NCBI GenBank assembly: GCA_046313915.1 | Contig: JBKBXX010000002.1 | Coordinates: 14,449 to 78,448, forward strand | Length of the DNA: 64,000 nt | Direction of reading: 5' to 3' | Source of the DNA: Burkholderiales bacterium | GTDB taxonomy: Bacteria > Pseudomonadota > Gammaproteobacteria > Burkholderiales > SG8-41 | In this document: positions 731 through 43,302 of the stretch, piece by piece | How the letters are laid out: each line of letters starts with the position of its first letter | Position numbering within the stretch: position 1 is the stretch's first letter | Program-made: the position numbers and the translations under genes | The notes under the pieces: generated by a model | Seen by the model: only the letters and a program-made list of their open reading frames with translations | Told to the model about the DNA's origin: nothing | Database searches by the model: none

Positions 731-3460
731 ATGAAAACACTGCTGCTGGTCGACGGTTCGTCCTACCTTTATCGCGCGTTTCACGCGCTGCCCGATTTGC
801 GCAACAAGAAAAACGAGCCGACCGGCGCGATCTATGGCGTGCTCAACATGCTGCGCCGGCTGCACCAGGATGCGCCCGCCGATTATAGCGCCTGCGTTTT
901 CGATGCCAAAGGCAAGACTTTCCGCGAAGAGGTCTATCCCGACTACAAGGCCCACCGGCCGCCCATGCCCGACGATCTCGCCGCGCAGATCGCGCCGCTG
1001 CACGAAACCATCGTCGCAATGGGCTGGCCGCTGCTGATCGTCGAGGGTGTGGAAGCCGACGATGTCATCGGCACGCTTGCCCGCCAGGCCGAGCGCGAGG
1101 GCATGCGGGTGGTGATCTCGACCGGCGACAAGGATCTGGCGCAGCTCGTCAGCCCCGCCATTACGCTGGTCAACACCATGTCCGGCGAGACCCTGAACGA
1201 AGCCGGCGTCGAGCAGAAATTCGGCGTCAAGGCCGAGCGCATCATCGATTATCTGACGCTGATCGGCGACAGCGTCGACAACGTGCCGGGAGTGGCCAAG
1301 GTCGGCCCCAAGACCGCGGTGAAGTGGCTGTCGCAGTACGGCACGCTCGACAACGTGATGCGGCATGCTGCCGAGATCGGCGGCGTGGTCGGCGAGAACC
1401 TGCGCCGCGCGCTCGACTGGTTGCCCAAGGCGCGCGAGCTGCTCACCATCAGATGCGACGTCGCGCTGCCGGTGAAAATCGAGGATCTCGCGCCGCGGCC
1501 GCCGGACACGGCGAAGCTCGCCGAGCTGTTCGAGCGCTTCGAATTCAGGTCGTGGCAGCGCGAGCTGGAAGGGGCGGCGGCCAACCGGGCGCCGCCGCCA
1601 GCGGCTGACGGCGCCAGCGCAGACGGCGCGGTGCATGCGCTGCAACCCGCGCTTGAACGGCATTACGAAACCGTGCTGACCGAGCAGCAGCTCGATGCCT
1701 GGGTGAGCCGGATCGCCGCGGCCGATCTGGTCGCGGTCGACACCGAGACCACCAGCCTCGATCCGCTGCGCGCGCAACTGGTCGGCATTTCGCTCGCCGT
1801 CGCCGCCGGCGACGCCGCCTACATTCCGGTAGGGCATCGCTACGCCGGCGCGCCGCCGCAGCTCGCGCTCGAACGGGTGCTCGCCCGGCTCGGTCCGTGG
1901 CTGGAAGATGCCGCGCGGCCCAAGCTCGGCCAGCACCTCAAGTACGACATGCACGTCTTGGCCAACCACGGCGTGCGTCTGGCCGGCGCGCAGCACGACA
2001 CGCTGCTGCAGTCGTACGTGCTGGAAAGCCACAAGCCACACGACATGGACAGCCTGGCCTATAGACATTTATCAATAAAAACAATAACTTATGATGAAGT
2101 CACGGGCCGGGGCGCGAACCGCATCGGCTTCGAGCAGGTGGCGCTCGAGCGCGCCGCCGAGTACGCGGCCGAGGACGCCGATATCACGCTGCGGCTGCAC
2201 CAGGCGCTGTACCCGCAGATCGAGGCGAACGCCGGACTCACCTATATTTACCGCGAACTCGAAATGCCGGTGATGCGCGTGCTGCAGATCATGGAACGCC
2301 ACGGCGTGCTGCTCGACACGGCGCTGCTCGCGGAACTGTCGCGCGAATTCGGCGAGAAAATGTTGGCGCTCGAAGCGCGGGCGCACGCGCAGGCCGGCCA
2401 GCCTTTCAACCTCAATTCGCCCAGGCAGATCCAGGACATCCTGTTCGGGAAACACGGGCTGAAGCCGGTCAGGAAAACGCCTTCGGGCGCGCCTTCCACC
2501 GACGAGGATACGCTTGAGCAGCTCGCGCTCGATCATCCGCTGCCGCGATTGATCCTCGATTACCGCAGTCTCGCCAAGCTCAAATCGACTTACACCGACA
2601 AGCTGCCCGAGATGATCCATCCCGCGACCGGGCGCGTGCACACCAATTATGCGCAGGCGGTAGCGGTGACCGGGCGGCTCGCGAGCAACGATCCCAATCT
2701 GCAGAACATCCCGATCCGCACCGCTGAAGGCCGGCGCATCCGCGAGGCGTTCATCGCGCCGCCGGGGTGCCATCTCGTGTCGGCGGACTATTCGCAGATC
2801 GAACTCAGGATCATGGCGCACGTGTCGCAGGACGCGGGCCTGCTCAGGGCATTCGCCGCCGGCGAGGATATCCACCGCGCCACCGCAGCGGAAATTTTCG
2901 GCGTGGCGCCGCAAGTCGTGGACGCCGAGCAGCGGCGTTACGCCAAAGTGATCAACTTCGGTCTGATCTACGGCATGTCGTCGTTCGGGCTCGCGCGCGA
3001 GCTCGGGCTTGAGCGCGCTGCCGCCCAGCAGTACATGGACCGCTATTTTGCGCGCTATCCGGGAGTTGCCGAGTACATGCGCGCGACACGCGAAAAAGCG
3101 CGCGAGCAGGGCTACGTCGAAACCGTGTTCGGGCGCCGGCTGTGGCTGCCCGAAATCCGCGGCGGCAACGGCATGCGACGCCAGGCCGCCGAGCGCGCGG
3201 CGATCAACGCGCCGATGCAAGGCACTGCGGCCGACCTCATCAAGATGGCGATGATCGCGGTGCAGAAATGGATAGAGCGCGACGGACTCAAGACCCGGCT
3301 CATCATGCAGGTGCACGACGAGCTGGTGCTCGAAGTGCCCGACGCCGAGCTCGCCGCCGTGAAAGAGACTTTGCCGCGTCTCATGACCGGCGTGGCGAAG
3401 CTCGCGGTGCCGCTGGTGGTCGATGTCGGAGTGGGGCCGAACTGGGATAAAGCGCATTGA
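731..3460 (+). CDS. polA: DNA polymerase I
   Basis: 909-aa ORF with a 5'-nuclease N-terminus (LLLVDGSSYLYRAFHALP), a 3'-5' exo domain (VAVDTETTSLD) and polymerase motifs (DYSQIELR, QVHDELV). Confidence 0.98.
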   Translation: MKTLLLVDGSSYLYRAFHALPDLRNKKNEPTGAIYGVLNMLRRLHQDAPADYSACVFDAKGKTFREEVYPDYKAHRPPMPDDLAAQIAPLHETIVAMGWPLLIVEGVEADDVIGTLARQAEREGMRVVISTGDKDLAQLVSPAITLVNTMSGETLNEAGVEQKFGVKAERIIDYLTLIGDSVDNVPGVAKVGPKTAVKWLSQYGTLDNVMRHAAEIGGVVGENLRRALDWLPKARELLTIRCDVALPVKIEDLAPRPPDTAKLAELFERFEFRSWQRELEGAAANRAPPPAADGASADGAVHALQPALERHYETVLTEQQLDAWVSRIAAADLVAVDTETTSLDPLRAQLVGISLAVAAGDAAYIPVGHRYAGAPPQLALERVLARLGPWLEDAARPKLGQHLKYDMHVLANHGVRLAGAQHDTLLQSYVLESHKPHDMDSLAYRHLSIKTITYDEVTGRGANRIGFEQVALERAAEYAAEDADITLRLHQALYPQIEANAGLTYIYRELEMPVMRVLQIMERHGVLLDTALLAELSREFGEKMLALEARAHAQAGQPFNLNSPRQIQDILFGKHGLKPVRKTPSGAPSTDEDTLEQLALDHPLPRLILDYRSLAKLKSTYTDKLPEMIHPATGRVHTNYAQAVAVTGRLASNDPNLQNIPIRTAEGRRIREAFIAPPGCHLVSADYSQIELRIMAHVSQDAGLLRAFAAGEDIHRATAAEIFGVAPQVVDAEQRRYAKVINFGLIYGMSSFGLARELGLERAAAQQYMDRYFARYPGVAEYMRATREKAREQGYVETVFGRRLWLPEIRGGNGMRRQAAERAAINAPMQGTAADLIKMAMIAVQKWIERDGLKTRLIMQVHDELVLEVPDAELAAVKETLPRLMTGVAKLAVPLVVDVGVGPNWDKAH
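2060..2098 (+). other. AT-rich synonymous codon island inside polA carrying CAAT-N5-CAAT (2073-2085)
   Basis: tat aga cat tta tca ata aaa aca ata act tat gat gaa gives 13 consecutive A/T-ending codons. The flanking codons are GC-ending. Confidence 0.7.
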
Positions 3461-3563: not shown

Positions 3564-4727
3564 ATGCGTATCCACACCGCAAGTCTCGCGCGTCTCGCGG
3601 CGCTGCTGTCCTCGCTCTGGGCTGCGCCGGTCGTCGCCCAAAGTTATCCTTCGAAGCCGATCCGCCTCATCATCGCGCAGGCGCCGGGCGGAGGGCCCGG
3701 CTCACGGCGAAGGGGTGGGGGTGGGGGCGGAGACGGGACCCGGCTGCCCGGATCATGGCAGCGCATCTTGCGACGGCTGGCGCTGGCGCTGCTGTCCTCG
3801 CTCTGGGCTGCGCCGGTCGTCGCCCAAAGTTATCCTTCGAAGCCGATCCGCCTCATCATCGCGCAGGCGCCGGGCAGCGCCACCGACGGCGTGAGCCGCG
3901 TGCTCAGCACCAAGCTCGCCGAGCGTCTCGGCCAGCCGCTCGTCATCGAAGCGCGTCCGGGTGCCGGCGGCACGGTGGGCACGGAAGTGGCGGCGCGCGC
4001 CGCCGCCGACGGCTACACGCTGTTCATGGCCAACAACTCCACGCACGGCTCGAATCCCGCGGTGTACCGCAAGTTGCCGTACGACGCGGTCAGGGATTTC
4101 GCGCCGATCATTTTCGTGGCGGCCACGCCGTACGTCTTGAGTGTGCACCCGTCGCTGCCGGCAACGAGCGTGAAACAGCTCGTCGCGCTGGCGAAATCGA
4201 AACCGGGGCAGATCAATTACGCTTCCGCGGGCAACGGCAGCACTCATCACCTGAGCGGCGAGCTGCTCAAGAGCATGGCCGGCATCGACCTGCTCCACGT
4301 CCCGTACAAAGGCACGACGCCCGCCATCACCGCCTTGCTGAGCGGCGAGGTGTCGGTCATGTTCGCCACCGTGGTCGGCATCCAGCCGCACGTCAAGTCG
4401 GGCAAGGTGAGGGCGCTGGGCGTGACGGCCTCGCGGCGCTCGCAGATGATGCCCGAGCTGCCGACGATGGCCGAGGCGGGGCTGCCGGGTTTTGAAGTCA
4501 CGTCCTGGTTCGGGCTGCTCGCGCCCGCGGGAACGCCGGCGGCGGTCGTGAACCGCCTGAACGCCGAAACGGCGAAGGTGCTGGGACTGCCGGAAGTGAA
4601 GTCCGCGTTGAACACGCTGGGCTTCGAGGTCACGTCCGGCTCGCCCGAGCAGTTCGGCGACCACATCAAGCGCGAGATCGAGAAGTTCACCAGGCTCGCC
4701 AATGCGACCGGCATCAAGGCGGAGTAG
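3564..4727 (+). CDS. Tripartite tricarboxylate transporter substrate-binding protein (Bug/TctC family), with an in-frame 62-codon 5' duplication/insertion
   Basis: Frame of the 3522..4727 ORF. ATG 3564 gives signal peptide MRIHTASLARLAALLSSLWAAPVVAQ. Bug-family body: SYPSKPIRLIIAQAPGSATDG...LPYDAVRDFAPI...INYASAGNGSTHHL. An alternative in-frame TTG start at 3768 lies before the second repeat copy. Confidence 0.85.
   Translation: MRIHTASLARLAALLSSLWAAPVVAQSYPSKPIRLIIAQAPGGGPGSRRRGGGGGGDGTRLPGSWQRILRRLALALLSSLWAAPVVAQSYPSKPIRLIIAQAPGSATDGVSRVLSTKLAERLGQPLVIEARPGAGGTVGTEVAARAAADGYTLFMANNSTHGSNPAVYRKLPYDAVRDFAPIIFVAATPYVLSVHPSLPATSVKQLVALAKSKPGQINYASAGNGSTHHLSGELLKSMAGIDLLHVPYKGTTPAITALLSGEVSVMFATVVGIQPHVKSGKVRALGVTASRRSQMMPELPTMAEAGLPGFEVTSWFGLLAPAGTPAAVVNRLNAETAKVLGLPEVKSALNTLGFEVTSGSPEQFGDHIKREIEKFTRLANATGIKAE
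3599..3875. repeat. Exact 91-bp direct repeat (3599-3689 = 3785-3875) separated by a 95-bp G-run-rich spacer
   Basis: Base-by-base comparison of the two copies shows identity. The period is 186 bp. The spacer contains GGGGTGGGGGTGGGGGCGGAGACGGG. Confidence 0.9.
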
Positions 4728-4728
4728 C

Positions 4729-4771
4729 GGGGAAAAGGGTGAAACCCCCATCCCTGCCCTTCCCCTTTTTT
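4729..4771 (+). terminator. Rho-independent terminator candidate after the Bug-family gene
   Basis: GGGGAAAAGGG (4729-4739) pairs with CCCTTCCCC (4757-4765), leaving a 2-nt bulge, and is followed by a T6 run (4766-4771). Confidence 0.55.
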
Positions 4772-4808
4772 GAAGGGAAAGGAAACTCTGCCGGCGGGAG
4801 GAGGATGG

Positions 4809-5264
4809 GTGGGGCGGCATGTGCAGGACAAACGCGAAAGGGGAGCGGCATTGTCACACGATTCGATCGCCGGCAGCTGTCTGTGCGGCGCGGTGCGTTT
4901 TGAAATCAGGCCGCCGTTGACGGCTTTCCGCTACTGCTATTGCAGCCGCTGCCGCAAGGCGAGCGGTGCGGCGCATGCGGCCAATGTTTTTCTTCCGGCG
5001 AGCCTGTGGGGCGGGCCCGCCGGCGAGGCACTGATCCGCCGTTTCGATCTGCCGGGCGCGAAGCGCTTCGCGGTGTGCTTCTGCACGCGGTGCGGCACGC
5101 GCGTGCCGCACCGGATTGCGGGCACGGAAAACATGATGGTGCCGGCAGGCATTCTGGATGCGAGTCCTGGCGAGGCCCCCGACAGCTGCATTTTCTGGGC
5201 GTCGCGAGCGCCGTGGTACGTCGAACCGCAGGCGCTGCCGAAGTTCGACGAATACGGCGGGTGA
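4809..5264 (+). CDS. GFA family protein (glutathione-dependent formaldehyde-activating / CENP-V-like Zn-binding domain)
   Basis: GSCLCGAVRFEI...YCYCSRCRKASG...FCTRCGTRVPH cysteine pattern. The track start TTG 4770 lies in the upstream terminator T-run. GTG 4809 (after GGAGGA) or TTG 4851 (after AAGGGGAG) are more plausible starts. Confidence 0.75.
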   Translation: MGRHVQDKRERGAALSHDSIAGSCLCGAVRFEIRPPLTAFRYCYCSRCRKASGAAHAANVFLPASLWGGPAGEALIRRFDLPGAKRFAVCFCTRCGTRVPHRIAGTENMMVPAGILDASPGEAPDSCIFWASRAPWYVEPQALPKFDEYGG

Positions 5265-7341: not shown

Positions 7342-8238
7342 TCAGCGCTTGCCGCGCCGGCGCTCGATGCCCGCCATCGCGCCCAGCACTTCGCACACCG
7401 AGGCGGTGTCGCTCTGGCCGAGACCCCGCCCCATCGCCGCGCTGTATAGGGGTTCGCAGGCGCTGAACAGCGGCGTCGGGCAGTCGACCGAGCGTGCCAT
7501 TTCGCCGATCACCTGCATGTCTTTCTGCCACACTTCCACTTTCATGGTCGCGGGCCGGTAGCGGCCTTCGATCATGAGCTTGCCGCGCAGGCGGTAGACG
7601 CCATTGCCGATCACCGGGCTCGTGGCGAAGAGCTCCCATACCTGGCGCGGGTCGAGCCCCATTTTGCGCGCGAAAGTGAGCGCTTCGGCGGTGGCGACGT
7701 TGAGGATCGCCACCATGTGGTTGGCGGAGAATTTCATCCGGGTGCCGTTGCCGTAGGCGCCGACGTACGGCACCTTTTGGGTGAACACGCCGAGCACCGG
7801 CTGCGCGCGCTTGAACGCCGCGCGCGAGCCGCTGGCGAATATCGTCCACGCGCCTTCCTTCATGCGCACCGCGGTGCCACTGATCGGGCAGTCGAGTGTC
7901 GCGATGCCGGTGCGCCGGAGCGTGCGCCGTGCGCGATCCTTGGCGGCGAGCGGCAGCGTGCTGGTTTCGATGACGAGAAGCCCGGCGCGCCCGGCTTCGG
8001 CGATTTTTGCCACCGTGGCGGCGAGCGCCGCAGCGGTCGCGAGCGAGGTGATGACGATCTCAGCGCTCGCCGCCACCGCGGTGGCCGAGGCGAGCGGCTC
8101 GCCGCCCGCTTTCTTGAGCCGGCGGCAGGCCTCGGCGCGGATGTCGTAACCGGTGACGCGGTAACCGTGGGCGAGCAACGCCTCGGCCATCGCGCTGCCC
8201 ATGATGCCGAGGCCGACGATGCCGACGGCCGGTTTCAT
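7342..8238 (-). CDS. NAD(P)-dependent oxidoreductase, 3-hydroxyisobutyrate dehydrogenase / 6-phosphogluconate dehydrogenase-like family
   Basis: [32 protein letters not shown] Rossmann N-terminus. The ATG at 8238 overlaps the lipA stop (ATGA). Confidence 0.85.
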
Positions 8239-9182
8239 TTGAGCGCCATCACGCCGGCTTCGTGCGCCTGCTGGTCGGCGTGATAGCTCGAACGCACCAG
8301 CGGCCCGCATGCGGCGTGGCTGAAACCCATTTTTTGCGCTTCGTGCGCGAACCGGTCGAAGAGCGCCGGCTCGACGTAACGCAGCACCGGCAGGTGGTGC
8401 GCCGAAGGCTGCAGATACTGGCCAATCGTCAGCATGTCGACGTCGTGCGCGCGCAGGTCGCGCATCACTTCGAGGATTTCCCCGTCGGTTTCGCCCAGCC
8501 CCACCATCAGTCCCGACTTGGCGGGGAGGTGCGGGCAGCGCGCTTTAAAATTCTTCAATAATTTCAATGAGTTACTGTAGTCTGCACCCGGGCGCGCCTG
8601 TTTGTAGAGCCGCGGCACGGTTTCCAGATTGTGGTTCATGACGTCGGGCGGACACTCGGCGAGGATGTCGAGCGCGAGATCGAGCCGGCCGCGGAAATCG
8701 GGCACCAGCGCTTCGATACGCGTTGCCGGCGAAGCCTCGCGCACGGCGCGGATGCAGTCCCTGAAATGGCGCGCGCCGCCATCGCGCAGGTCGTCGCGGT
8801 CGACGCTGGTGATCACCACATACTTGAGCTTGAGCGCGGCAATGGTGTCGGCGAGCCGGACGGGTTCGGCGGCGTCGGGCGGCAGCGGCTTGCCGTGCGC
8901 GACGTCGCAGAACGGGCAGCGCCGCGTGCACAGGTCTCCGAGGATCATGAAAGTCGCGGTGCCTTTGCCGAAACACTCGCCGATGTTGGGGCAGGTTGCT
9001 TCCTCGCACACCGTATGCAGGCGGTGCTCGCGCAGGATGTCCTTGATTTCCTGGAAGCGCCGGCCGTCGCCGAGCCGCACGCGGATCCACTCCGGCTTCC
9101 TCAGCGGTTCGGCCGGCACCACCTTGATCGGGATGCGCGCCGTCTTGGCCGCGCCTTTCTGCTTTTCACCTGTCGCGCTCAT
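8235..9182 (-). CDS. lipA: Lipoyl synthase
   Basis: Radical-SAM and auxiliary cluster cysteines ([22 protein letters not shown]), C-terminal SSYHADQQA. Confidence 0.97.
8544..8576 (+). other. AT-rich synonymous codon island inside lipA; the motif reads on the plus strand (antisense to lipA), CAAT-N5-CAAT at 8556-8568
   Basis: Minus-strand codons agt aac tca ttg aaa tta ttg aag aat ttt aaa encode [11 protein letters not shown]. The plus strand reads TTTAAAATTCTTCAATAATTTCAATGAGTTACT. Confidence 0.7.
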
Positions 9183-23398: not shown

Positions 23399-23425
23399 GC
23401 ATTTCTCTTGGTGGTCGAGGTCATG

Positions 23426-23449
23426 TATAATTTCAGCATATTTTGAAAT
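23426..23449 (+). promoter_or_regulatory. Perfect TATAAT -10 hexamer overlapping an AT-rich inverted repeat (candidate ArsR-type operator) upstream of the ArsR-rhodanese-grxC genes
   Basis: TATAAT at 23426-23431. ATTTCA (23430-23435), N8, TGAAAT (23444-23449). It lies 36 nt upstream of ATG 23485. Confidence 0.4.
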
Positions 23450-23484
23450 GCGCCGGGCCCGCCCGGCAGGCACAGGAATACATT

Positions 23485-27287: not shown

Positions 27288-28991
27288 ATGGCGCGGCCCG
27301 AAAAAGTCCGCCTCGGCGAAATCCTGGTGGAGCAGAAGCTGCTCACCGAGGAACAGCTGAAGCTCGCCCTCGAGGAGCAGAAGCGCAGCGGCCGCCGGCT
27401 CGGCCGCGTACTCGTCGAAAGCGGCATCCTCACCGAGGAACAGATTTCCGAAGCGCTTTCGCGCCAGCTGCAGATCCCGTACGTCAATCTCAGGCACTTC
27501 AACATCAAGCCCGAGGTGATGCGCATGCTTCCTGAAGCGCGCGCGCGGCGTTTCCGCGCCATCGTGCTCGACGACGACGGCAAGTCGGTGAAGATCGGCA
27601 TGGCCGATCCGACCGATCTCAACGCCTACGATCAGATCGCGCGCCTGCTCAAGCGCGACATCGATGTGTGGGTGGTGACCGAAAGCCAGCTGCTGGAGAC
27701 CATCGACCGCTTCTACCGCCGCACCGAGCAGATCACCGATCTCACCCAGGAGCTCGAAGCCGAATTCTCCGATACCGCGGTCGATTTCGGCGCGCTGGCG
27801 GCAACACCCGGAATCGAGGAAGCGCCGGTCGTCAAACTGCTGCAGACCATATTCGAAGATGCGACCCAGGTGCGCGCTTCCGACATCCATATCGAGCCGC
27901 AGGAGCGCCGCCTGCATATCCGCTTCCGCATCGATGGCGTGCTGCATCTGCAGACCGAAGCCGACCTGCGGATCGCCTCGGCGCTGGTGCTGCGCCTGAA
28001 GCTCATGTCGGGGCTCGACATTTCGGAAAAGCGCCTGCCGCAGGACGGCCGCTTCAACGTCAAGGTGCGCCAAGCTCAGATCGACGTGCGGGTATCGACC
28101 ATGCCCACCCAGTATGGCGAATCGGTGGTGATGCGTTTGCTCAACCAGTCGACTGGCATCCTCGGGCTCGACCGTCTGGGCATTCCCGCGCCCATGCTCG
28201 CGCGCATACGCGAAGTGATCGCCCGTCCCAGCGGCATGGTGCTGGTGACCGGGCCGACCGGCAGCGGGAAAACCACCACGCTCTACGCGGTGCTGTCGGA
28301 GCTCAACTCGGTGCAATCCAAGATCATTACCGTGGAAGATCCCGTCGAATACCGCCTGCCGGGAATCAACCAGGTACAGGTGCACGAAAAAATCGGGCTG
28401 ACTTTCGACCGCGTGCTGCGTTCGGCATTGCGCCAGGATCCCGACATCATCCTGGTGGGCGAAATGCGCGATCGCGACACGGTGGAAACCGGTCTGAGGG
28501 CGGCATTGACCGGCCACCTGGTGCTTTCCACCCTGCACACCAATGACGCGGTGAGCACGCCGGTGCGGCTGCTCGACATGGGCGCGCCGCGCTACATGGT
28601 GGCGCTGTCGCTGCAAATGGTGATCGCGCAGCGGCTGGTGCGGGTGATCTGCGAAAGCTGCGCCCGGCCCTACACGCTGCGGCCCAATGAGCACGAGTGG
28701 CTGAAGCTCGAACTGGGCGAGCGCGTCGACAGCTTTTCCTATCTGCGCGGCCAGGGCTGCTCGCACTGCAACGGCACCGGCTATCTCGGCCGCACCGGCG
28801 TCTACGAAATGCTGGAAATGACCAAACCGGTGGTGGAGGCGGCAAACCAGCCTGACCCCAATGTTTTCATCGCTGCGGGCCGCAGGCAGATGGACGGCAA
28901 GACGCTGCGTCACCACGCGGCCCAGCTCGTGGCGCAGGGCAGGACCACGGTCTACGAGGCGATGCGGGTTTCGAGCCAGTTCGAGGACTGA
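27288..28991 (+). CDS. mshE: MSHA-type pilus assembly ATPase MshE (GspE/PilB family with an MshEN c-di-GMP-binding N-terminus)
   Basis: N-terminus RLGEILVEQKLLTEEQLKLALEEQ...RLGRVLVESGILTEEQISEALSRQ (two MshEN-type repeats). Walker A GPTGSGKTTT, a tetracysteine motif (CESC...CSHC) and GspE boxes. Confidence 0.9.
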   Translation: MARPEKVRLGEILVEQKLLTEEQLKLALEEQKRSGRRLGRVLVESGILTEEQISEALSRQLQIPYVNLRHFNIKPEVMRMLPEARARRFRAIVLDDDGKSVKIGMADPTDLNAYDQIARLLKRDIDVWVVTESQLLETIDRFYRRTEQITDLTQELEAEFSDTAVDFGALAATPGIEEAPVVKLLQTIFEDATQVRASDIHIEPQERRLHIRFRIDGVLHLQTEADLRIASALVLRLKLMSGLDISEKRLPQDGRFNVKVRQAQIDVRVSTMPTQYGESVVMRLLNQSTGILGLDRLGIPAPMLARIREVIARPSGMVLVTGPTGSGKTTTLYAVLSELNSVQSKIITVEDPVEYRLPGINQVQVHEKIGLTFDRVLRSALRQDPDIILVGEMRDRDTVETGLRAALTGHLVLSTLHTNDAVSTPVRLLDMGAPRYMVALSLQMVIAQRLVRVICESCARPYTLRPNEHEWLKLELGERVDSFSYLRGQGCSHCNGTGYLGRTGVYEMLEMTKPVVEAANQPDPNVFIAAGRRQMDGKTLRHHAAQLVAQGRTTVYEAMRVSSQFED

Positions 28992-29004
28992 GGGCGAGAC
29001 GACG

Positions 29005-30231
29005 ATGGCGCTTTTCGCCTACAAGGGACGCGATGCCCAGGGCGCGCTGGTGCACGGCACGATGGAAGGCCCCGACAGCGCCGCGGTGGCGGGCAGGCTC
29101 TCGGGCATGGGCGTGATCCCGCTCGAAATCCGCGCTTCCCCGGCAACGACGGCGGACGCCTGGGGCGGGCTGCTTGCGCGCCTGAAACGCGACAAGGTGA
29201 CGAATCTGGACATCCTGCTGTTCTGTCGCCAGATGTACACCTTGCTGAAAGCGGGCGTGCCCATGACGCGGGCCCTTGCCGGTCTGCAGGATTCCACCAC
29301 CAACACGCAGTTCAAGGCGGTTCTGGGCCGGGTGCGCGAAGGGCTCGACAGCGGCCGCGAGCTTTCCGCTTCGCTGCAGCGCGAAGCGCCGCTTTTCTCG
29401 CCTTTTTTCATCAGCATGGTGCGCACCGGCGAGATGACCGGCAGGCTCGAGGAAATTTTTCTCGAGCTTTTCAACCATCTCGAATTCGAAAACTATATGC
29501 GCGACCAGATCCGCTCGGCGCTGCGCTATCCTGCTTTCGTGGTGGTGGCGATGGCGATCGCGCTGGTGGTGGTCAGCATTTTCGTGATCCCGGTGTTCGC
29601 CAAGGTTTTCATGGGCTTCGGCAAGGAGTTGCCGCTCATGACGCGAATCATCGTCGGTTATTCCAATTTCATGGTGGCGGCGTGGCCGCTGCTGCTGGGG
29701 GCGCTGATCATCGCGGTGACCGTTTTCCGCGCTTTCGTGAAGACGCCCCGCGGCAAGTACTGGTGGGACGGGTTCAAGCTGCGCGTCCCGATCGCCGGCA
29801 AGATCGTATTGAAAGCCATCATGGCGCGCTTCGCCCGCAGTTTCGCGCTGGCGTATCGCAGCGGCGTTCCCATGATGCAGGTGCTGAGCCTCGTGGCGGA
29901 AGTGGTCGACAACGATTTCATCGCCGAGCGGGTGGAAAAAATGCGGCAAGGTGTGGAACGCGGCGAGAGTGTGCTGCGGACCGCGAACGAGGCGGGCATT
30001 TTCACGCCGCTGGTGCTGCAGATGATCGCGGTGGGCGAGGAATCGGGCGCGCTCGACGATCTGCTGCAGGAAGCCGCCGCGATGTACCAGCGCGAAGTCG
30101 AGTACGAGTTGAAGACCCTGAGCGCCCAGGTCGAGCCGCTCCTGATCATGGGGCTGGGCGTGCTGGTGCTGATCCTCGCGCTGGGCGTCTTTCTGCCGAT
30201 GTGGGATCTCGGCCGGGCGGCCTTGCACTAG
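29005..30231 (+). CDS. mshG: Type II secretion system F-family platform protein (MshG)
   Basis: MALFAYKGRDAQGALVHGTMEG... with duplicated GspF domains and three TM segments. It directly follows mshE. Confidence 0.88.
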   Translation: MALFAYKGRDAQGALVHGTMEGPDSAAVAGRLSGMGVIPLEIRASPATTADAWGGLLARLKRDKVTNLDILLFCRQMYTLLKAGVPMTRALAGLQDSTTNTQFKAVLGRVREGLDSGRELSASLQREAPLFSPFFISMVRTGEMTGRLEEIFLELFNHLEFENYMRDQIRSALRYPAFVVVAMAIALVVVSIFVIPVFAKVFMGFGKELPLMTRIIVGYSNFMVAAWPLLLGALIIAVTVFRAFVKTPRGKYWWDGFKLRVPIAGKIVLKAIMARFARSFALAYRSGVPMMQVLSLVAEVVDNDFIAERVEKMRQGVERGESVLRTANEAGIFTPLVLQMIAVGEESGALDDLLQEAAAMYQREVEYELKTLSAQVEPLLIMGLGVLVLILALGVFLPMWDLGRAALH

Positions 30232-30292
30232 CCGCGGGCGCGGCTGCCCGGCGGGTCGGCGGCGGGGGGCGACTTGCGGCGCGAGCGGGCGT

Positions 30293-30298
30293 TATAAT
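30293..30298 (+). promoter_or_regulatory. Isolated perfect TATAAT hexamer 80 nt upstream of pilin A1 (weak -35)
   Basis: GCGTTATAATGG sits in an otherwise GC-rich spacer. No good TTGACA lies at 16-18 nt. Confidence 0.25.
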
Positions 30299-30377
30299 GG
30301 GTGATGAAAAGCGCGTGGGCAGCCTATCTTTGCGGCGCTGGCCGGGGCGGTTGCCCGCGCAAGCATACGGAGGGCGG

Positions 30378-30758
30378 ATGAAAAACCCCGAGGCAGGTTT
30401 CACCCTGCTGGAACTGGTGACGGTGATCGTGCTGGTCGGCATTCTCGCTGCGGCGGCGACGGCGCGGTTCGTGGATTTCAGAAACGACGCCAACCAGGCG
30501 GTGCTCAAAGGGCTTGCCGCGCAGCTGGGCGCGGCGATGGAGTTGAACAAGAACGCGCGCCTGATGAACATGACTTATGCCGTGACCATCAACGACTGCT
30601 CGCAGGCGGGCGTGCTGCTGAGCGGCGGCCTGCCGACCGGCTATACGCTCGCGGCGAAACCGCTGACCCTGCCTTTCGAGACGGGAATATGCACGGTGTC
30701 GGCAGTCGCGCCCGGCACCCAGAGCGCGACTTTCATCGGCTACGGCATCAGCTCATAA
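30378..30758 (+). CDS. Type IV (MSHA-type) pilin, class A paralog 1, prepilin N-terminal methylation domain
   Basis: MKNPEAGFTLLELVTVIVLVGILAAAATARF..., a C-terminal Cys pair, and the ending TFIGYGISS. GGAGGG RBS. Confidence 0.88.
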   Translation: MKNPEAGFTLLELVTVIVLVGILAAAATARFVDFRNDANQAVLKGLAAQLGAAMELNKNARLMNMTYAVTINDCSQAGVLLSGGLPTGYTLAAKPLTLPFETGICTVSAVAPGTQSATFIGYGISS

Positions 30759-30788
30759 AAAAACCGGGCGCGGCTGCGCCCGCTTTTG
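30757..30788. terminator. Bidirectional rho-independent terminator between convergent pilin genes
   Basis: A7 run, CGGGCGC GGCT GCGCCCG stem-loop (30765-30782), then CTTTTG. The T7 run is on the minus-strand side. Confidence 0.65.
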
Positions 30789-30794
30789 CGCGGC

Positions 30795-31274
30795 TTACGA
30801 GCAGTCGCTGACCACCACGGTATAGGTGGGCGGGCTCGTCGAATCCAGCGCTTTTTTGTATCCCACTTCGCAAAGTTTTGGATCCTGCGCCTTGGAATGC
30901 TGGAAGGCGCCGTCGGGATAAGCGGTGTCGGCTCCGACGACGACGTCCGCCGTCAGATTCAGCGCTTTTGCGAGCTCGGTGGCGTTCTTGGCGTAGCCAT
31001 AGACCAGCTCTATGCTGGAGTTACCGGTGCCGTCGCCTTTGGGGTACGAGATGGTGGCGCCGGCGGACAGCGCCACGACGTTGGCGATCGACGCTTTGGC
31101 GAAAATCGAATCGTTGGCCTGTTTCATCGCGCCCGCCGTGCTCCGGATCACGCCGGCGCGTGCATCCGCGCCCAGGCTTACGAGCCGCGGCACTGCCACG
31201 GCGGCGAGGATGCCGACGATGGTGATGGTGACCACCAGCTCGGTCAGGGTAAAACCGGATTGTGTGGATTTCAT
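30795..31274 (-). CDS. Type IV pilin, class B paralog 1 (PilA-like, C-terminal disulfide loop ending ...VSDCS)
   Basis: MKSTQSGFTLTELVVTITIVGILAAVAVPRL... ; C-terminus KLCEVGYKKALDSTSPPTYTVVVSDCS. Start at the internal ATG 31274. Confidence 0.88.
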   Translation of the reverse strand: MKSTQSGFTLTELVVTITIVGILAAVAVPRLVSLGADARAGVIRSTAGAMKQANDSIFAKASIANVVALSAGATISYPKGDGTGNSSIELVYGYAKNATELAKALNLTADVVVGADTAYPDGAFQHSKAQDPKLCEVGYKKALDSTSPPTYTVVVSDCS

Positions 31275-31415
31275 GTGATCCCTCCGAACGAAAGCCGCCT
31301 GCTGCACCGAGGCGGCGCAGCAGGGGCGGAAAAACGGATTTTCGGCTTGACTGGTCATGTCCGGCAGCGCGCCGCCGCGCGACGGGCTGTGGCAGCGCGC
31401 CGCTTCATCGGCGGC

Positions 31416-31961
31416 TTACGAGCAGTCGCTGACGAGGATGAGGACCATGGGCACCGTGCTGGTGCTGGCCGCTTTCGTGTAGCCGGCCTCGCACTTGGAA
31501 GGATCCTGGGCTTTGGTATGCCGGATGGTGCCGTCGGGACCGATCAGGGTGGCTGCCGTGATACCGGTGTAACTCGAGTTATAGAGCAGCGCGGTGGCAC
31601 CGAGTGCGGAGTTGTCGACCGTGCCGACGGCGACGTCGGGGTGCGCGACCAGGGCCTTGTACAATTCCGCGGCGTTTGCGGCAAAGCCGTAGTGAATGTT
31701 GATGGTTTGTCCGCCGAGAGAGACAAAGGCATTCGCGTTGCCCGACGACAGATTCACGATGTTCAGGCTCGACGCCTTGGAAAAAATGGTGTCGTTGGCG
31801 TGTTTCATTGCGTCGGCCGTATTTTTGATCACCGATTCCCTCGCGTCCGTGCTCAGGTTGGCAAACCGCGGGATGGCGACCGCGGCGAGAACGCCGACGA
31901 TCGTGACGGTCGTGACCAGTTCCACCAGCGTAAAGCCGGTTTGCTGCTTGATCGTTTTCAT
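31416..31961 (-). CDS. Type IV pilin, class B paralog 2 (PilA-like, ending ...VSDCS)
   Basis: MKTIKQQTGFTLVELVTTVTIVGVLAAVAIPRF... ; C-terminus SKCEAGYTKAASTSTVPMVLILVSDCS. SD AAGGGGGG. Confidence 0.88.
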   Translation of the reverse strand: MKTIKQQTGFTLVELVTTVTIVGVLAAVAIPRFANLSTDARESVIKNTADAMKHANDTIFSKASSLNIVNLSSGNANAFVSLGGQTINIHYGFAANAAELYKALVAHPDVAVGTVDNSALGATALLYNSSYTGITAATLIGPDGTIRHTKAQDPSKCEAGYTKAASTSTVPMVLILVSDCS

Positions 31962-32073
31962 GTTGCACCCCCCTTAGGAAAGGGCCGCAGCCCTCGAAAG
32001 ACAGGGCCGCAACCCTGCCTACACTCCGCCTAATATACCTACGCTAGAGGGTCGATGCCGGTTTGTCAAATTT

Positions 32074-32089
32074 TGTGAAATTTTTCACG
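32074..32089. promoter_or_regulatory. CRP/Vfr-like palindrome upstream of pilin B2
   Basis: TGTGA AATTTT TCACG matches 9 of 10 positions of TGTGA-N6-TCACA. It lies 113-128 nt upstream of ATG 31961. A minus-strand TTGACA sits at 32069-32064. Confidence 0.35.
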
Positions 32090-32145
32090 GCAGGTGCTTC
32101 TTGCGAGATGGCGTCCGGGGGTCGCGCTCGCGGCGCTGCTCCGGC

Positions 32146-32715
32146 TCAGGGCGTCTTGAGCACCTCCAGATCTTTGACGTAGCAGTGCGCCGAAGCCGCT
32201 TGGACCCTGACCAACCCCATATCCAAGTCATTGATTTTCAACGTTTCTGAGGTTTTGACCACGCCCCAGTAGATCGCGCGGTTGACATCGAGGCGGGCGC
32301 CGCTCGCGGAACGGTGTTCACACGCGATGTCTATGCCCCGGACGTCGTGGGCGCCGTTGTTGGTCAGCACGACGTCTATCCGCATCGGCGTGCCGATGCC
32401 GCTGGGGCGCCAGCTGTAGTGAAAATCGATGTCGCGGATCGCTGCGGCGCGGGCTTGCACTGCCGGATCGGGCTCGCGCGGTGGCGGGGCAAACCACTCC
32501 ACGCTCCGGTAGCGGTGGTAAGTGATCGAGCCGGCCACGATCAACAAGACGCCGACCACCAGCGCGAGCTTCGACACGGGGCGCCTTATCCTTGCTCCGC
32601 ATTTCGGACAAACCGTGGTCTCGGCACTGACCTGCTGCCAGCAGCGTTTGCATCGGATATGCGCCAAATCGTTTTCTCTCGTTCCAGGGTGAGGGCGAGC
32701 CGTCCGCCGCCTCAT
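32146..32715 (-). CDS. Hypothetical zinc-ribbon / single-TM protein
   Basis: CKRCWQQVSAETTVCPKCG zinc ribbon, a TM segment (LALVVGVLLIVAGSI), then a roughly 120-aa extracytoplasmic domain. No family recognised. Confidence 0.5.
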   Translation of the reverse strand: MRRRTARPHPGTRENDLAHIRCKRCWQQVSAETTVCPKCGARIRRPVSKLALVVGVLLIVAGSITYHRYRSVEWFAPPPREPDPAVQARAAAIRDIDFHYSWRPSGIGTPMRIDVVLTNNGAHDVRGIDIACEHRSASGARLDVNRAIYWGVVKTSETLKINDLDMGLVRVQAASAHCYVKDLEVLKTP

Positions 32716-32899
32716 GCACTCGTTGCCCTAGCATAGAGCAAGTCCGGGGCGCGGGCCACACCGCTTTCGTTCTTTCTCGGGCGCCGCTTCCCGGCACGGC
32801 AAGCGCTTTCCGCGGCGGCGCGATATACTATGACTATGCTTTCGGCTTGCAATGAAACGGCTGACGGCGGAGCGGAAAGCCTGATTCGGGGGGAGTGAA

Positions 32900-33523
32900 A
32901 TGAGTGCTGGCCTGGATTTGCTGGCGGAGGTCCTCAGGAGCGGTTTCGTGGCCGTGCTGCTGCTGGGATGCGTGGCGAGCCTCGCCTACGGCGTGTGGCT
33001 GCTGCTGCAGCCCGAGCAGGCGTTGCGTTTCAACCGGCGCGTCAGCGCGTGGGTGTCTACCGAGAAAGTCGTGCAGACGCTGGACCAGCCGCATTCGATC
33101 GAGCGCATCGTCTACCGCTACCACCGCATCTATGGCGCCTTGCTGCTGGCGGGTGGGTTGTTCACGCTCTACGTGATGGCGGCCGGCCGCTGGAGCCGCG
33201 ACGTGAGAAGCGCGCTCGGTCTGGGCGAATGGTCGTGGCTGGTGGGCGACGTCACGAGCGCGTTGATGGTCATCATCGGCATACTCGCGACGGCGCTCGG
33301 CATCGTCATCGTGATCAGGCCCAGCCTGTTGCGCGGCATCGAGGCGCGGCTCAACCGCTGGATCGCCACCGACCAAGACCTGCAGCCGCTCGACAGCGTC
33401 CACGATGCTCCCGACCGCTTTGCCGCGCGCCACGCGCGGGCGGTGGCAGTGCTGATCGTCGCCGGCAGCCTCTACGTGCTGGTGGCGCTGGCGCCGCTGT
33501 GGCGCACGTTGTTGTCATTCTGA
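32900..33523 (+). CDS. Hypothetical integral membrane protein (about 4 TM)
   Basis: 207-aa ORF with hydrophobic segments (FVAVLLLGCVASLAYGVWLLL, IYGALLLAGGLFTLYVMAA, ALMVIIGILATALGIVIVI, AVAVLIVAGSLYVLVALAPLW). It is divergent from the zinc-ribbon gene. Confidence 0.55.
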   Translation: MSAGLDLLAEVLRSGFVAVLLLGCVASLAYGVWLLLQPEQALRFNRRVSAWVSTEKVVQTLDQPHSIERIVYRYHRIYGALLLAGGLFTLYVMAAGRWSRDVRSALGLGEWSWLVGDVTSALMVIIGILATALGIVIVIRPSLLRGIEARLNRWIATDQDLQPLDSVHDAPDRFAARHARAVAVLIVAGSLYVLVALAPLWRTLLSF

Positions 33524-33714
33524 GCCGGCTCGCCGCAGAGGTTTGCGTCGGCGTCCGATATGTGGTAGAAAGTCGGTTGCTGGGAGTAGTCGGAAGGAGC
33601 GCTGCGGGGAACGACAACGCAGGGATTCCGCAGCGCTCTTCGAGAGCCAACAGCCGGCCTGGGAACTGCGGTTCCGGGCCGGGGGGCTGCGGCCCCTTTC
33701 AAAAGGAGCAAAAA

Positions 33715-34095
33715 ATGAAAAACAGGCAGCAAGCGGGTTTCACCCTCATCGAGCTGGTTCTGGTCATCGTGATTCTGGGCATACTGGCGGCGGTAGCGGT
33801 GCCGCGGTTCATCGATGTCAAGTCCGACGCCGCCAAGGCAGCGACGAAGGGCGTGGCGGCGAGCCTGCAGGCGGCAGCGGCGATGAACAAGGCGGAGCGT
33901 CTGATCAAAGGCTCGAGCACGTCGTACAACGCGACCGAGTGCGCGGCGTACACCGCAAAGCTCGACGCCTTCCCGAGTGGCTACACGGTCACTGGCACTT
34001 TGACGACGGGAACCAATTTCCCTTCTGGAAGCTGCACCGTGGCCGGGCCTGAAAGCGAAACCGCGACCTTCGTCGGTTACGGGATCAGCGGCTAG
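33715..34095 (+). CDS. Type IV (MSHA-type) pilin, class A paralog 2
   Basis: AAGGAG RBS. MKNRQQAGFTLIELVLVIVILGILAAVAVPRF... ending TFVGYGISG. Same length (126 aa) as the 30378 gene. Confidence 0.88.
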   Translation: MKNRQQAGFTLIELVLVIVILGILAAVAVPRFIDVKSDAAKAATKGVAASLQAAAAMNKAERLIKGSSTSYNATECAAYTAKLDAFPSGYTVTGTLTTGTNFPSGSCTVAGPESETATFVGYGISG

Positions 34096-34203
34096 AACAC
34101 ATTCCGGCTTGAAGCACAGACGCATCACCCGGGCGGTGGCCTGCCCGGGTGCGGGTTTGGGCGCGCGCCGGCTTGCAGCCGGTTTCCCGGGTCGCGGCCG
34201 AGC

Positions 34204-34518
34204 ATGAGCATTTTCGGATTCACTCCCCGCAAGCGCGTCGATGAAACCGCGAAGAAGCTCGCGCGCGAGTTCTTCCGCCTGTGTCCGCCCGCGGCACCGG
34301 CCAAGGGCGGGCAGCCGTCCGAAAAGAAAATCGAAAGCGCGCTCGCCGAAATCTACAAACAGGCCAAAGCGTTCCGCCGCGAAAACCGGCTCGGCGTGCT
34401 CAACCGTGCGCGTTTCGCCAAGGTCTTCCAGGACGAACTGGCGGCGCTCGGCTATCCATCCGAATCGTTCACCAAAGTGACGACCGCGCTGGTGATCAAC
34501 GCGCTGTCGGGCGACTAG
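34204..34518 (+). CDS. Hypothetical protein (104 aa)
   Basis: MSIFGFTPRKRVDETAKKLAREFF... is a helical, basic ORF between pilin A2 and the GT41 gene. No family recognised. Confidence 0.45.
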   Translation: MSIFGFTPRKRVDETAKKLAREFFRLCPPAAPAKGGQPSEKKIESALAEIYKQAKAFRRENRLGVLNRARFAKVFQDELAALGYPSESFTKVTTALVINALSGD

Positions 34519-34540
34519 CGCCACGCGCGGTCTGCGAGCG

Positions 34541-36799
34541 ATGGCGCAGCCGTCCGCCCCGTCCATGCTGCTTTCCCTGCTCTACCGCTGGCTCGCCGCG
34601 ATCCTGGAAAGGCGCGGCCACTCGTCGCTTGCGCAGACCTGCTATCGCGAGGCAGCGCGGCTTGCGCCCGGCGACGCCAGGGCGCCTTTCGTCCTGGGCA
34701 GCCTGCTGCTGCGCCAGGGGCGGGCCGAAGAGGCCGCTCAGGCTTTCCGGCAAGCGCTCGCAGCCGACCCCGATCATGCCGAAGCCCACAACAATCTCGG
34801 CGTCGCGCTCGCTCAGCAGGAGCAGCTCGATGCGGCGGCCGCGTGTTATTGCGCTGCGCTGCGGCTCAAGCCGGACCACGCCGCGGCCCACAACAATCTG
34901 GGCAACGTCCATCTGGTGCGCGGCCAGCTGGACGAGGCCGAAGCCAGCTATCGCGCTGCATTGCGCTGCGACCGGCACTATGTCGAGGCGCACAACAACC
35001 TGGGGCTGGTGCTGCTCGAGCAAGGCCGCCACCAAGACGCCGAAAAAGCGATACGCGAGGCGCTGCGGCTGCGGCCAGACTTTGCCGGGGCATTAAACAA
35101 TCTGGGGAGCGTGCTGCTGCGCCAGGGCGAGGTCGAGGAAGCGGTGGCCTGCTTGCAGCAGGCGCTGCGGCTGCAGCCCGATCTCGGCGAAGCGCACATC
35201 AACCTCGCGCTGATCCTCGGCGACATGAACCAGCTCGCCGGCGCGGTCGATTATTACCGCAACAAGCTCAGGTTCAATCCCGATTCGGCCGAAGCCCACT
35301 TCAGGCTGGGAATGGGACTGCAGGCCCAGGGCAAGCTGGTCGAGGCGCGGCAGCATTTCGAGGCGATGTTGAAAATCAGGCCCGAGGCGCCGGAAGCGCT
35401 CGCCAATCTGGGTGGGGTTGCGCTGCGCGAAGGCAATCTCGACGAGGCGCTCGCTTTTTTCAAGGCGGCGCTCGAGCACGCGCCGGTTTTTGCCGGTGCC
35501 CATTACAACTACTTTTTCTGCCTCAATTACAGCGCCGACTACGAACCCGCCGAGGTCTTCGCCCAGCACGCCCGCTGGGCCGAAGCGCATGCCGATCCGC
35601 TGAGCAGCGCCGCCGCACCATTTGCCAATTCGCGCCGCCGTGACAGGAAGCTGCGCGTGGGCTACGTGTCGCCCGATTTCCGGGCGCACTCGGTGGCCTA
35701 TTTCATCGAACCCGTGATCCGGCATCACGACCGCGACCGCTTCGAGGTTTATTGCTATTCGAACGCGCTCCAGTCCGACGAGGTCACGGCGCGCATCCGC
35801 GCGCTCGCCGACGTGTGGCGCGACATCCGTCTCCAGACCACGTCCCAGGTGTGCGAGCAGGTTCGCGCAGACGGAATCGACATTCTGGTGGATCTCGCCG
35901 GCCACACCGGCAGGAACCGGCTGGCGGTTTTTGCCCACAAGCCCGCGCCCATCCAGGTGACCTACATCGGCTATCCCAACACCACCGGCCTCGCCGCGAT
36001 GGACTACCGCATCACCGATGCCTACGCCGATCCGCCAGGCCTGACCGAACGGTTCCACACCGAGCAACTGGTGCGGTTGCCGCAAACCTTTCTGGTTTAT
36101 GCGCCGCCGGCCGACAGTCCGGAGGTCGCGCCGCCGCCGCTCGCGCGCAAAGGGCATGTCACTTTCGGCAGCTTCAACAACGCCGCGAAAGTGATCCCCC
36201 GCGTCATCGCCCTGTGGTCGAAAATTCTCCATGCCGTGCCGGACAGCAGACTGATGCTCAAGCACTTTGCCTTCCACAGCGCCGAGGCCAAGGAGCGTTT
36301 CCAGGGATTGTTCGCGCAAAACGGCATCGCGGCTGACCGCATTGATCTGCTCGATTTCGTGCCCACGGTATCCAGCCACCTGGAACTGTACCATGAAGTG
36401 GATATCGCGCTCGATCCGTTCCCGTACAACGGCACCACCACCACCTGCGAAGCGCTGTGGATGGGTGTTCCGGTGATCACGCTCGCCGGCAAGGTCCACG
36501 CCGGGCGGGTCGGCGTGAGCCTGCTGTCCAACGCCGGTCTGGCCGAGTTGATCGCCGACAGCGAAGAAGCCTATGTCCGGATCGCCGTCGAGCTCGCCAA
36601 TGACGTGCAACGGCTCGCCGGGCTGCGGGCCGCCATGCGCGCAAGGCTCGAGAATTGTCCACTCACCGATGCCCGCGCGCTCGCGCGCGCGCTGGAAGCG
36701 GAGTATGCGAAAATGTGGCAAAGATGGTGTGAAACGCCCGCAGCGGCCGGAGACGGCGCCGTTCCGCTTGCCGCGGGCGCTGCGGCGCAGCTGCCGTAA
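34541..36799 (+). CDS. TPR-repeat protein fused to a GT41 (SPINDLY/O-GlcNAc-transferase-like) glycosyltransferase domain
   Basis: The N-terminal third to half consists of 34-aa TPRs (AHNNLG... recurs). The C-terminus reads LRVGYVSPDFRAHSVAYF...DILVDLAGHTGRNRLAVFAHKPAPIQVTYIGYPNTTG...VTFGSFNNAAKV...GTTTTCEALWMGVPV. Confidence 0.85.
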   Translation: MAQPSAPSMLLSLLYRWLAAILERRGHSSLAQTCYREAARLAPGDARAPFVLGSLLLRQGRAEEAAQAFRQALAADPDHAEAHNNLGVALAQQEQLDAAAACYCAALRLKPDHAAAHNNLGNVHLVRGQLDEAEASYRAALRCDRHYVEAHNNLGLVLLEQGRHQDAEKAIREALRLRPDFAGALNNLGSVLLRQGEVEEAVACLQQALRLQPDLGEAHINLALILGDMNQLAGAVDYYRNKLRFNPDSAEAHFRLGMGLQAQGKLVEARQHFEAMLKIRPEAPEALANLGGVALREGNLDEALAFFKAALEHAPVFAGAHYNYFFCLNYSADYEPAEVFAQHARWAEAHADPLSSAAAPFANSRRRDRKLRVGYVSPDFRAHSVAYFIEPVIRHHDRDRFEVYCYSNALQSDEVTARIRALADVWRDIRLQTTSQVCEQVRADGIDILVDLAGHTGRNRLAVFAHKPAPIQVTYIGYPNTTGLAAMDYRITDAYADPPGLTERFHTEQLVRLPQTFLVYAPPADSPEVAPPPLARKGHVTFGSFNNAAKVIPRVIALWSKILHAVPDSRLMLKHFAFHSAEAKERFQGLFAQNGIAADRIDLLDFVPTVSSHLELYHEVDIALDPFPYNGTTTTCEALWMGVPVITLAGKVHAGRVGVSLLSNAGLAELIADSEEAYVRIAVELANDVQRLAGLRAAMRARLENCPLTDARALARALEAEYAKMWQRWCETPAAAGDGAVPLAAGAAAQLP

Positions 36800-36840
36800 A
36801 AGGGAAACATCGAGCGCAGCATGAAGCCGGCGGATCGAAA

Positions 36841-39292: not shown

Positions 39293-39296
39293 AGCC

Positions 39297-43187: not shown

Positions 43188-43302
43188 ACAATATGTTATG
43201 TTATATTTCCCAGGCTAAGACCAAAAAGAGCACTTAACCTATTGACAATATTGGGTTTTATGTTAATTTCCCTTACCATGGCCTCGTCAAGGCTGGGAAA
43301 AA
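43188..43302 (+). promoter_or_regulatory. AT-rich intergenic promoter region for mshI-N, with TTGACA and a direct repeat ATGTTA(T)ATTTCCC
   Basis: TTGACA at 43242-43247, then N16, then TAATTT. ATGTTATATTTCCC at 43198-43211 and ATGTTAATTTCCC at 43260-43272. Confidence 0.35.

Follow-up and report, generated by a model that had tools for sequence, protein, structure and literature searches.

What does a short AT-rich island mean when it lies inside a conserved gene of a GC-rich genome? The question is raised by a 64,000-nucleotide stretch of DNA from a Burkholderiales bacterium (GenBank assembly GCA_046313915.1, contig JBKBXX010000002.1; the whole stretch is called the window), which has a GC content of 65% and in which the genes for DNA polymerase I (polA), lipoyl synthase (lipA) and BioF (bioF) each contain such an island, 33–39 nt long. 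The answer favoured here, with a probability of roughly 0.6, is that the islands are canonical binding sites of the integration host factor (IHF) type, embedded in coding DNA. By sequence they belong to this well-known class, and it is their coding context and evolutionary behaviour that are unusual.

One oriented motif in three genes

In polA, the frame at 2060-2098 reads TAT AGA CAT TTA TCA ATA AAA ACA ATA ACT TAT GAT GAA. All 13 of these codons end in A or T, unlike the codons on either side (GCC and GTC). Codon statistics cover 17,348 codons in the 52 called coding sequences of the window, where the fraction of codons ending in A or T (AT3) is 0.179; the number of runs of at least 13 such codons expected under independence is ∼2.7e-6. 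The two longest runs are those of polA (13 codons) and bioF (12 codons, 52699-52734), and stretches with at least 25 A/T in 30 bases inside long open reading frames (ORFs) are limited to the polA, lipA and bioF islands. The window's 909-amino acid Pol I is identical to a protein (P0001) encoded on an 80,103-bp contig of a metagenome-assembled genome (MAG) deposited at NCBI as "Burkholderiales bacterium", which means that the islands were already in the public record and were not introduced in the window.

The three islands have a motif of ∼31 bp in common, in which 17 columns are identical in all three. When the islands are shuffled the mean is 9.5 identical columns and the maximum 15, with 17 reached in none of 2000 shuffles, and when any one island is flipped the number falls to 11–12. 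The pattern ATTNWTCAATWAWWWCAATNASTTAYTG, with up to three mismatches allowed, matches the window three times, always on the plus strand (2, 0 and 0 mismatches), where 0.00 matches are expected. In polA the first base of the motif falls on codon position 1, in bioF on position 3, and in lipA the motif runs antisense to the gene, so the likeness of the copies cannot stem from similar peptides or mRNA. The lipA island even retains the G-ending codons TTG and AAG, because these provide the CAA elements on the opposite strand. Copies with the same architecture are also found between genes in relatives, as in the case of L153, L160, L164 and L166, where the copy comes right after a stop codon between convergent genes. 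L003 has an intergenic copy after polA, and in L201 the architecture is seen immediately upstream of bioB and ∼60 bp upstream of a TTGACA box. A near-verbatim string, ATCAATAAAATCAAATACTTA, is found again in unrelated contexts in the relatives' DNA. Overall there are three strong copies in the 64-kb window, and in relatives, if the polA site is not counted, 1.36 Mb contain ∼13 copies (∼1 per 100 kb). A search of the whole window with Rfam models gave no match at or above the gathering score of a family. What is constrained in the islands is the DNA, and neither the codons nor the RNA.

The island peptide of polA, YRHLSIKTITYDE, aligns colinearly and without gaps to 120 Pol I homologs. Compared with its nearest island-free relatives (ERHLGVKTITYDE) it has three replacements (E>Y, G>S, V>I), and with the first of them (GAG>TAT) comes a tyrosine that is unique among the 120 homologs and a longer 5' A/T tract. 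In the island-free polA of L001 the DNA reads GAG CGC CAT CTC GGG GTG AAG ACC ATC ACC. A preliminary description of the window had reported the 13-codon run in polA and the islands in lipA and bioF, and had proposed a constraint at the DNA level laid over colinear coding sequence; the islands exist as it described them, and the proposal is borne out by strand, by frame and by the gap-free homologs. It had also held that nothing was inserted and that the DNA was synonymously recoded. The colinear part of this stands, and the purely synonymous part does not, as three residues of polA are changed and the bioF peptides differ from one another.

Comparison with the architecture of IHF sites

IHF is a heterodimeric nucleoid protein of the DNABII family, which wraps ∼34 bp of DNA into a U-turn. 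It is generally conserved in Proteobacteria, and its presence in this lineage is assumed from that. The length of the islands agrees with the IHF footprint. A canonical 34-bp site has a WATCAA element with TTR four bp to its 3' side, and two steps, usually AA, that are nine bp apart and where the prolines of both subunits intercalate; some sites have in addition a tract of 4–6 A in the 5' half (PMC1874591).

These elements were checked in 23 instances of the motif (the window islands together with coding and non-coding copies in relatives). TTR, as TTA or TTG, is present exactly at +4 in 23/23. The two steps are nine bp apart in every instance as well, as AA-9-AA in 18 (including the three window islands), TT-9-AA in four and AT-9-AA in one. 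The WATCAA core is perfect in 9 and has one mismatch in 14, and none is worse. The 5' half is A/T-rich in all copies (TTTAAAA in lipA and intergenic copies, AATTTTA in the polA of the clade described below, AATTTAATTA in bioF), although a pure run of at least four A or T is found in only about half of them, at a distance to the core that varies (1–3 bp). Eight of the 11 non-coding copies have a perfect core, and those in genes miss it by one base, the exceptions being the bioF copy of L195, which attains a perfect AATCAAATAGTTA (core AATCAA), and a second copy in L199; this difference fits a coding constraint that limits the approach to the optimum. An unbiased scan of 1.4 Mb of relatives' DNA finds 28 perfect WATCAANNNNTTR cores, of which six have the TCAATA(A) half, namely the five whose upstream DNA is richest in A/T and one in L174; four of the six also have the TTTAAA(A) tract. 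As predicted sites, the islands in polA, lipA and bioF match the IHF site architecture in core, TTR and step spacing, and less clearly in the A-tract, and the earlier statement that they fit no standard feature class has to be given up.

Phage DNA can be used as a second source of copies. Here, the motif pattern matches 111 viral contigs, which represent 65 independent flank contexts, and a composition-matched reversed pattern gives five matches in four contexts (∼16-fold fewer contexts). Controls in which the motif was re-spaced give 34 matches in 15 contexts with 8-bp spacing, and eight matches in seven contexts with 10-bp spacing. The positions that the pattern leaves free are often T before CAA (52/65), A before T (46/65) and a purine after TT (50/65), and they thereby converge on the IHF consensus (ATCAA, TTR). 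The phages with the motif come from many environments and span 25–66% GC, a range which argues for a widely conserved host factor and not for a lineage-specific one. Many of their copies are in settings typical of IHF: flanked by iteron or DnaA-box-like repeats (L082), behind terminator hairpins, or abutting a partial tRNA 3' end. As an example, a family of marine phages (L016, L062, L049, L058, L046, L083, L021, L059 and L089) has a tyrosine integrase and a partial tRNA-Met-like 3' fragment that is not called by ARAGORN, with the motif directly 3' of the CCA end; L062 also has a terminator hairpin. In L016 (2158-4105) the partial tRNA 3' end and the motif are ∼0.8 kb from the integrase, and modules of this type look like int-attP, a classical IHF context. 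In a phage contig of 66% GC (L039, 3156-3179; also L080), the motif forms an AT island inside the gene of a 944-amino acid helicase, which also holds an intein (Hint domain plus LAGLIDADG homing endonuclease).

The lambda attP H' site and other canonical IHF sites (34–35 bp, A-tract plus WATCAANNNNTTR) resemble the islands in consensus elements, geometry and length, and the likeness includes the phage copies at the int-attP module and the promoter-proximal position of intergenic copies. The window copies differ from them in being placed inside housekeeping genes and in being made by recoding of codons and residues. Searches of the accessible literature for the motif strings and for conserved intragenic IHF sites in GC-rich genomes turned up no account of such islands, which is not proof of novelty; one of the strings is contained in two papers, both on phage P22.

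Table 1. The three genes, the predicted sites and their elements (window positions).
Feature	Positions	Strand	Elements and remarks
polA	731-3460	+	NCBIfam DNA polymerase I equivalog, 1187 bits
lipA	8235-9182	-	NCBIfam equivalog model match
bioF	51811-52965	+	NCBIfam equivalog model match
Predicted IHF-type site in polA	2060-2093	+	Sense strand; the A/T-ending codon run goes on to 2098
polA site, 5' elements	2060-2076	+	5' A/T tract 2060-2071; TCAAT 2072-2076, first AA step 2074-2075
polA site, core	2079-2084	+	AAACAA, one mismatch to WATCAA; AA 2083-2084, 9 bp from first AA
polA site, 3' part	2089-2091	+	Spacer TAAC, then TTA
Predicted IHF-type site in lipA	8544-8577	+	Antisense to gene
lipA site, 5' elements and core	8544-8567	+	TTTAAAA 8544-8550; TCAAT 8555-8559; core TTTCAA 8562-8567, one mismatch
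lipA site, 3' part	8572-8574	+	Spacer TGAG, then TTA
Predicted IHF-type site in bioF	52698-52732	+	Sense strand; frame differs from polA copy
bioF site, 5' elements and core	52698-52722	+	A/T tract 52698-52709; TCAAT 52710-52714; core AAACAA 52717-52722, one mismatch
bioF site, 3' part	52727-52729	+	Spacer TCAG, then TTA
Weak motif-like copy AAATTTCTTAAATTAAACAATATGTTA	43171-43200	+	Intergenic; core AAACAA, TTA, AA-9-AA; membership uncertain

The weak copy at 43171 has a position-weight score of 30.1, compared with 42–48 for the three islands. It is contained in the most AT-rich intergenic stretch of the window (43156-43276, 27/30 A/T), between a DUF6701 gene and the next gene.

Conservation and gain of the islands

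For polA, the sample consists of 80 orthologous loci from species-representative genomes and three more obtained via exact-protein look-ups, and presence of the island was called by a DNA motif scan of the orthologs; for bioF, it consists of 80 metagenome loci. The polA island is found in 26 of 81 orthologs, with the consensus AGAATTTTATCAATAAAAACAATWAGTTAYGA. In these 26, the nine codons for R-(I/H)-L-S-I-K-T-I-S have an AT3 of 1.0, with AGA, TCA, AAA, ACA and AGT each used 100% of the time, whereas in the flanks AT3 is ∼0.1–0.2 and the synonymous choice is variable. The 55 other orthologs have an AT3 of 0.02–0.18 at the same columns, making the two states discrete. The preliminary description had suggested looking for the island in orthologous polA genes, and in these 26 it is kept with near-invariant codons. 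Even between A and T the choice does not vary (TCA is never TCT, and ACA is never ACT), by which the two CAA elements are kept. Selection is therefore base-specific, and not merely for AT-richness.

When the island region is masked and a polA tree is calculated from the rest, all 23 species of one deep clade prove to have the island. Separately from these, it occurs in the small clade of the window, where the window, L003 and L116 have it and the relatives L001 and L115 do not. The adjacent codon is CAT in one clade and ATT in the other, and the flanks of the island show no shared conversion tract.

The other two islands are much rarer. Among ∼48 lipA orthologs, only the window and L001 have the island, which is identical between them over 27 nt while the flanking synonymous sites differ. 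The ∼46 others use GC-rich codons for an almost identical peptide (SLKLLKDFK), and these include genomes with the polA island. The lipA gene of L125 (about 4292-5224) reads TCA CTG AAA TTA TTA AAG GAT TTC, compared with TCG CTG AAG CTG CTG AAG in other orthologs without the island, and it is possibly an intermediate state of the island. In bioF, the island is found in the window, L195 and L199 and is absent from the other ∼75 loci. The peptides encoded by the three bioF islands differ (one is ENIIQLKQILT), and CAA-N4-TTA is kept in each. Taken together, the islands are under base-specific purifying selection on DNA, and sites have been gained independently in different genes, with the protein giving way to the DNA.

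In more than 100 orthologous loci, no mobile element was found inserted at or beside any island. The DNA just 3' of polA is in relatives (L001, 10938-13423; L003, 12866-22376) a variable hotspot of mobile DNA, with IS110 and IS66 transposases, an Eco57I-like restriction-modification gene, and PIN/RHH and DUF6883/DUF4926 toxin-antitoxin pairs. In the window this place is taken by tctC. A motif-like copy that resembles the polA island is found in the restriction gene of L003 (18756), where the peptide is ISIKTTS. Some of the polA loci also carry questionable labels: seven (L115, L125, L130, L136, L137, L150 and L181) have a betaproteobacterial polA, 72–82% identical to that of the window, in MAG records titled "uncultured Streptomycetaceae", "Chitinophaga pinensis" or "Rhodospirillaceae", which are probably mislabelled or contaminated bins.

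The remaining gene content of the window is ordinary, with housekeeping genes and a cluster for an MSHA-type type IV pilus or secretion system (27288-43187). The cluster includes a T2SSE ATPase with MshEN domain, T2SSF and N-methyl pilins, together with several ORFs without family and a 1300-amino acid DUF6701 protein, and in part of it (at about 34–44 kb) the GC skew is reversed compared with the rest of the window. Another AT-rich region, at 23418-23452, is the divergent promoter region between gpmI (minus strand) and genes for an ArsR-family regulator and a rhodanese (plus strand). It contains the inverted repeat ATTTCA-N8-TGAAAT, probably an ArsR operator, and the region gives rise to a spurious run of 9 A/T codons if the earliest possible start is taken for the gpmI ORF.

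The IHF reading, its alternatives and its meaning

How could such sites come to be inside genes? In a genome of 65% GC, an IHF site would require an AT-rich patch. A site within a gene would be placed there by selection and built through a switch to A/T-rich synonymous codons and, where synonymous change is insufficient, through conservative or even non-conservative amino-acid replacements. Once formed, it would be maintained by purifying selection on the DNA itself. The protein that binds the islands would be IHF rather than another one, and the consequence would presumably be a local bend in the DNA (∼160 degrees) with an architectural or regulatory effect. Among the candidates of the preliminary description, the nucleoid-protein binding site is the one towards which the sequence evidence points. 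No evidence was found for the roles in replication, segregation or DNA uptake that were listed beside it.

Several observations weigh against IHF sites. The cores in the window (AAACAA, TTTCAA and AAACAA) are each one base off the highly conserved WATCAA. At the same time the motif has more conserved positions than the E. coli IHF consensus. Conservation extends to the left TCAAT, the upstream ATT and the A/T-rich spacer, which makes the motif tighter than the published consensus, and since half of an IHF site is normally unconserved, this could point to a different or additional protein. Searches with IHF/HU query sequences gave no match in the DNA of this lineage that was examined. Nor is a function evident from promoter scans, as there is no sigma-70-like site at or near any island, and the sigma-54-like scan gave one match with 3 mismatches, at a background rate of 0.55 per kb, and nothing convincing near the islands. 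Finally, the presence of the same polA patch in two separated clades is explained by short-patch transfer as well as by convergent selection.

The last point leads to a wider proposal, which is doubtful but worth stating. The islands may be architectural sites that are positionally selected across the genome and "written" into essential genes of GC-rich Burkholderiales where intergenic AT-rich DNA is lacking, or some factor that is not IHF may read them. Both versions imply that they arise repeatedly and perhaps move between lineages as conversion patches of ∼30 nt, a movement that is suggested by the polA patch common to the two clades.

It is unlikely that another AT-preferring nucleoid protein (H-NS, MvaT, a Bv3F-like silencer, Fis or Lrp) binds the islands as nucleation or boundary sites. 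Selection on the islands is base-specific, with TCA and ACA invariant and the two CAA elements exactly 9 bp apart, and general AT preference does not account for this, even if such proteins would obviously be attracted to a 30-bp patch of 80–90% A/T in a genome of 65% GC. In the case of H-NS, the lipA sequence TCAATAATTT agrees at 8/10 positions with the published high-affinity motif TCGATAAATT. However, the elements specific to IHF are present in the islands, phage DNA prefers the 9-bp spacing over 8 or 10 bp and its free positions go towards ATCAA and TTR, and a silencer would be expected to do harm by repressing polA, lipA or bioF.

Also improbable is a factor restricted to the lineage or belonging to a mobile element, with the islands as integrase or transposase sites, recombination signals or uptake signals that spread by short-patch gene conversion, through molecular drive and not host benefit. 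Such a factor would account for the patchy distribution (polA in a deep clade and in the window's small clade, lipA in two genomes, bioF in three) and for a motif family tighter than the IHF consensus. The phage copies at attP and the mobile-DNA hotspot on the 3' flank of polA in relatives could be explained by it too. On the other hand, the >100 orthologous loci have no mobile element at or next to any island, the GC range of the phages with the motif speaks for a universal host factor, and the polA islands of the two clades lack a common conversion tract in their flanks. As uptake signals, with ∼1 per 20–100 kb, the islands would be far sparser than the known ones.

An effect at the level of translation or RNA is very improbable, be it the rare-codon pause already considered in the preliminary description, here as an aid to Pol I folding, or an AU-rich site for RNase E or Hfq. 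The motif is antisense in lipA (turned to the sense strand, this island has 12 shared columns in place of 17), in another frame in bioF and also intergenic, and the lipA island keeps TTG and AAG and, like the others, has no Rfam match. The codons TTA, ATA, AGA, TCA and ACA are rare in the window (AT3 = 0.18) and the polA island is situated between domains; ribosomes probably do slow there, as a side effect. Even less credible are neutral leftovers of recombination from AT-rich donors or local mutational accidents without function, which would agree with the lack of each island in most relatives and with the origin of the window in a metagenome-assembled genome, but not with 23 species that retain the polA island with invariant synonymous sites between varying flanks, with one oriented motif in three unrelated genes or, in the case of an assembly artefact, with in-frame colinear peptides recurring in independent assemblies.

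A number of further candidates were rejected. Tus-Ter, DnaA boxes and Fur, ArgR, FNR or LexA boxes are unfit in sequence, symmetry or spacing, and response-regulator direct repeats would need a spacing of 10–11 bp. Unfit in the same way are dif/Xer sites, integron attC, HUH nick sites, IS200/IS605 target tetranucleotides and -1 frameshift heptamers, and adapter contamination was dropped likewise. Deaminase hypermutation does not go together with the many transversions among the changes, and assembly chimeras do not go together with the recurrence of in-frame colinear peptides. The islands as sigma-70 or sigma-54 promoters were dismissed on the scans mentioned above.

Short DNA signals overlapping genes are known from other systems. 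The sites parS (bound by ParB), those of Noc and SlmA, matS and in-gene Ter sites are similar to the islands in being short, in overlapping ORFs, in constraining synonymous positions and in being conserved across species. They serve segregation, nucleoid-occlusion or termination systems, and except for Ter they are palindromic, whereas the motif of the islands is asymmetric and matches IHF. The uptake signal sequences (USS) of Pasteurellaceae and the DNA uptake sequences (DUS) of Neisseriaceae are oriented, reach up to ∼30 bp with AT-rich flanks, and are used in frame where the peptide permits, much like the islands; a patchy phylogenetic distribution and possible short-patch spread are further similarities. 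USS and DUS occur about once per kb, compared with once per 20–100 kb for the islands, and there is no sequence resemblance. Unlike USS and DUS, the motif of the islands is common in phages of unrelated hosts.

If IHF does bind the islands, they would be a very clean natural case of a nucleoid-protein code overriding the genetic code. For DNA polymerase I, lipoyl synthase and BioF this would mean that rare codons and changed residues were fixed by selection and kept across at least 23 species of one clade. Such sites are visible as AT islands in GC-rich genomes, which would allow cheap mapping of high-affinity architectural sites in uncultured bacteria, using only the sequence. With such maps it could be asked what positions the sites, be it domain boundaries, supercoiling or local regulation. 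For annotation, the consequence is that AT islands within genes need not be artefacts or foreign DNA. And if the islands should turn out to be a genome-wide set, or patches that move between lineages, they would amount to an overlapping code, either selectable or self-spreading, whose effect can be seen in altered sequences of conserved proteins.

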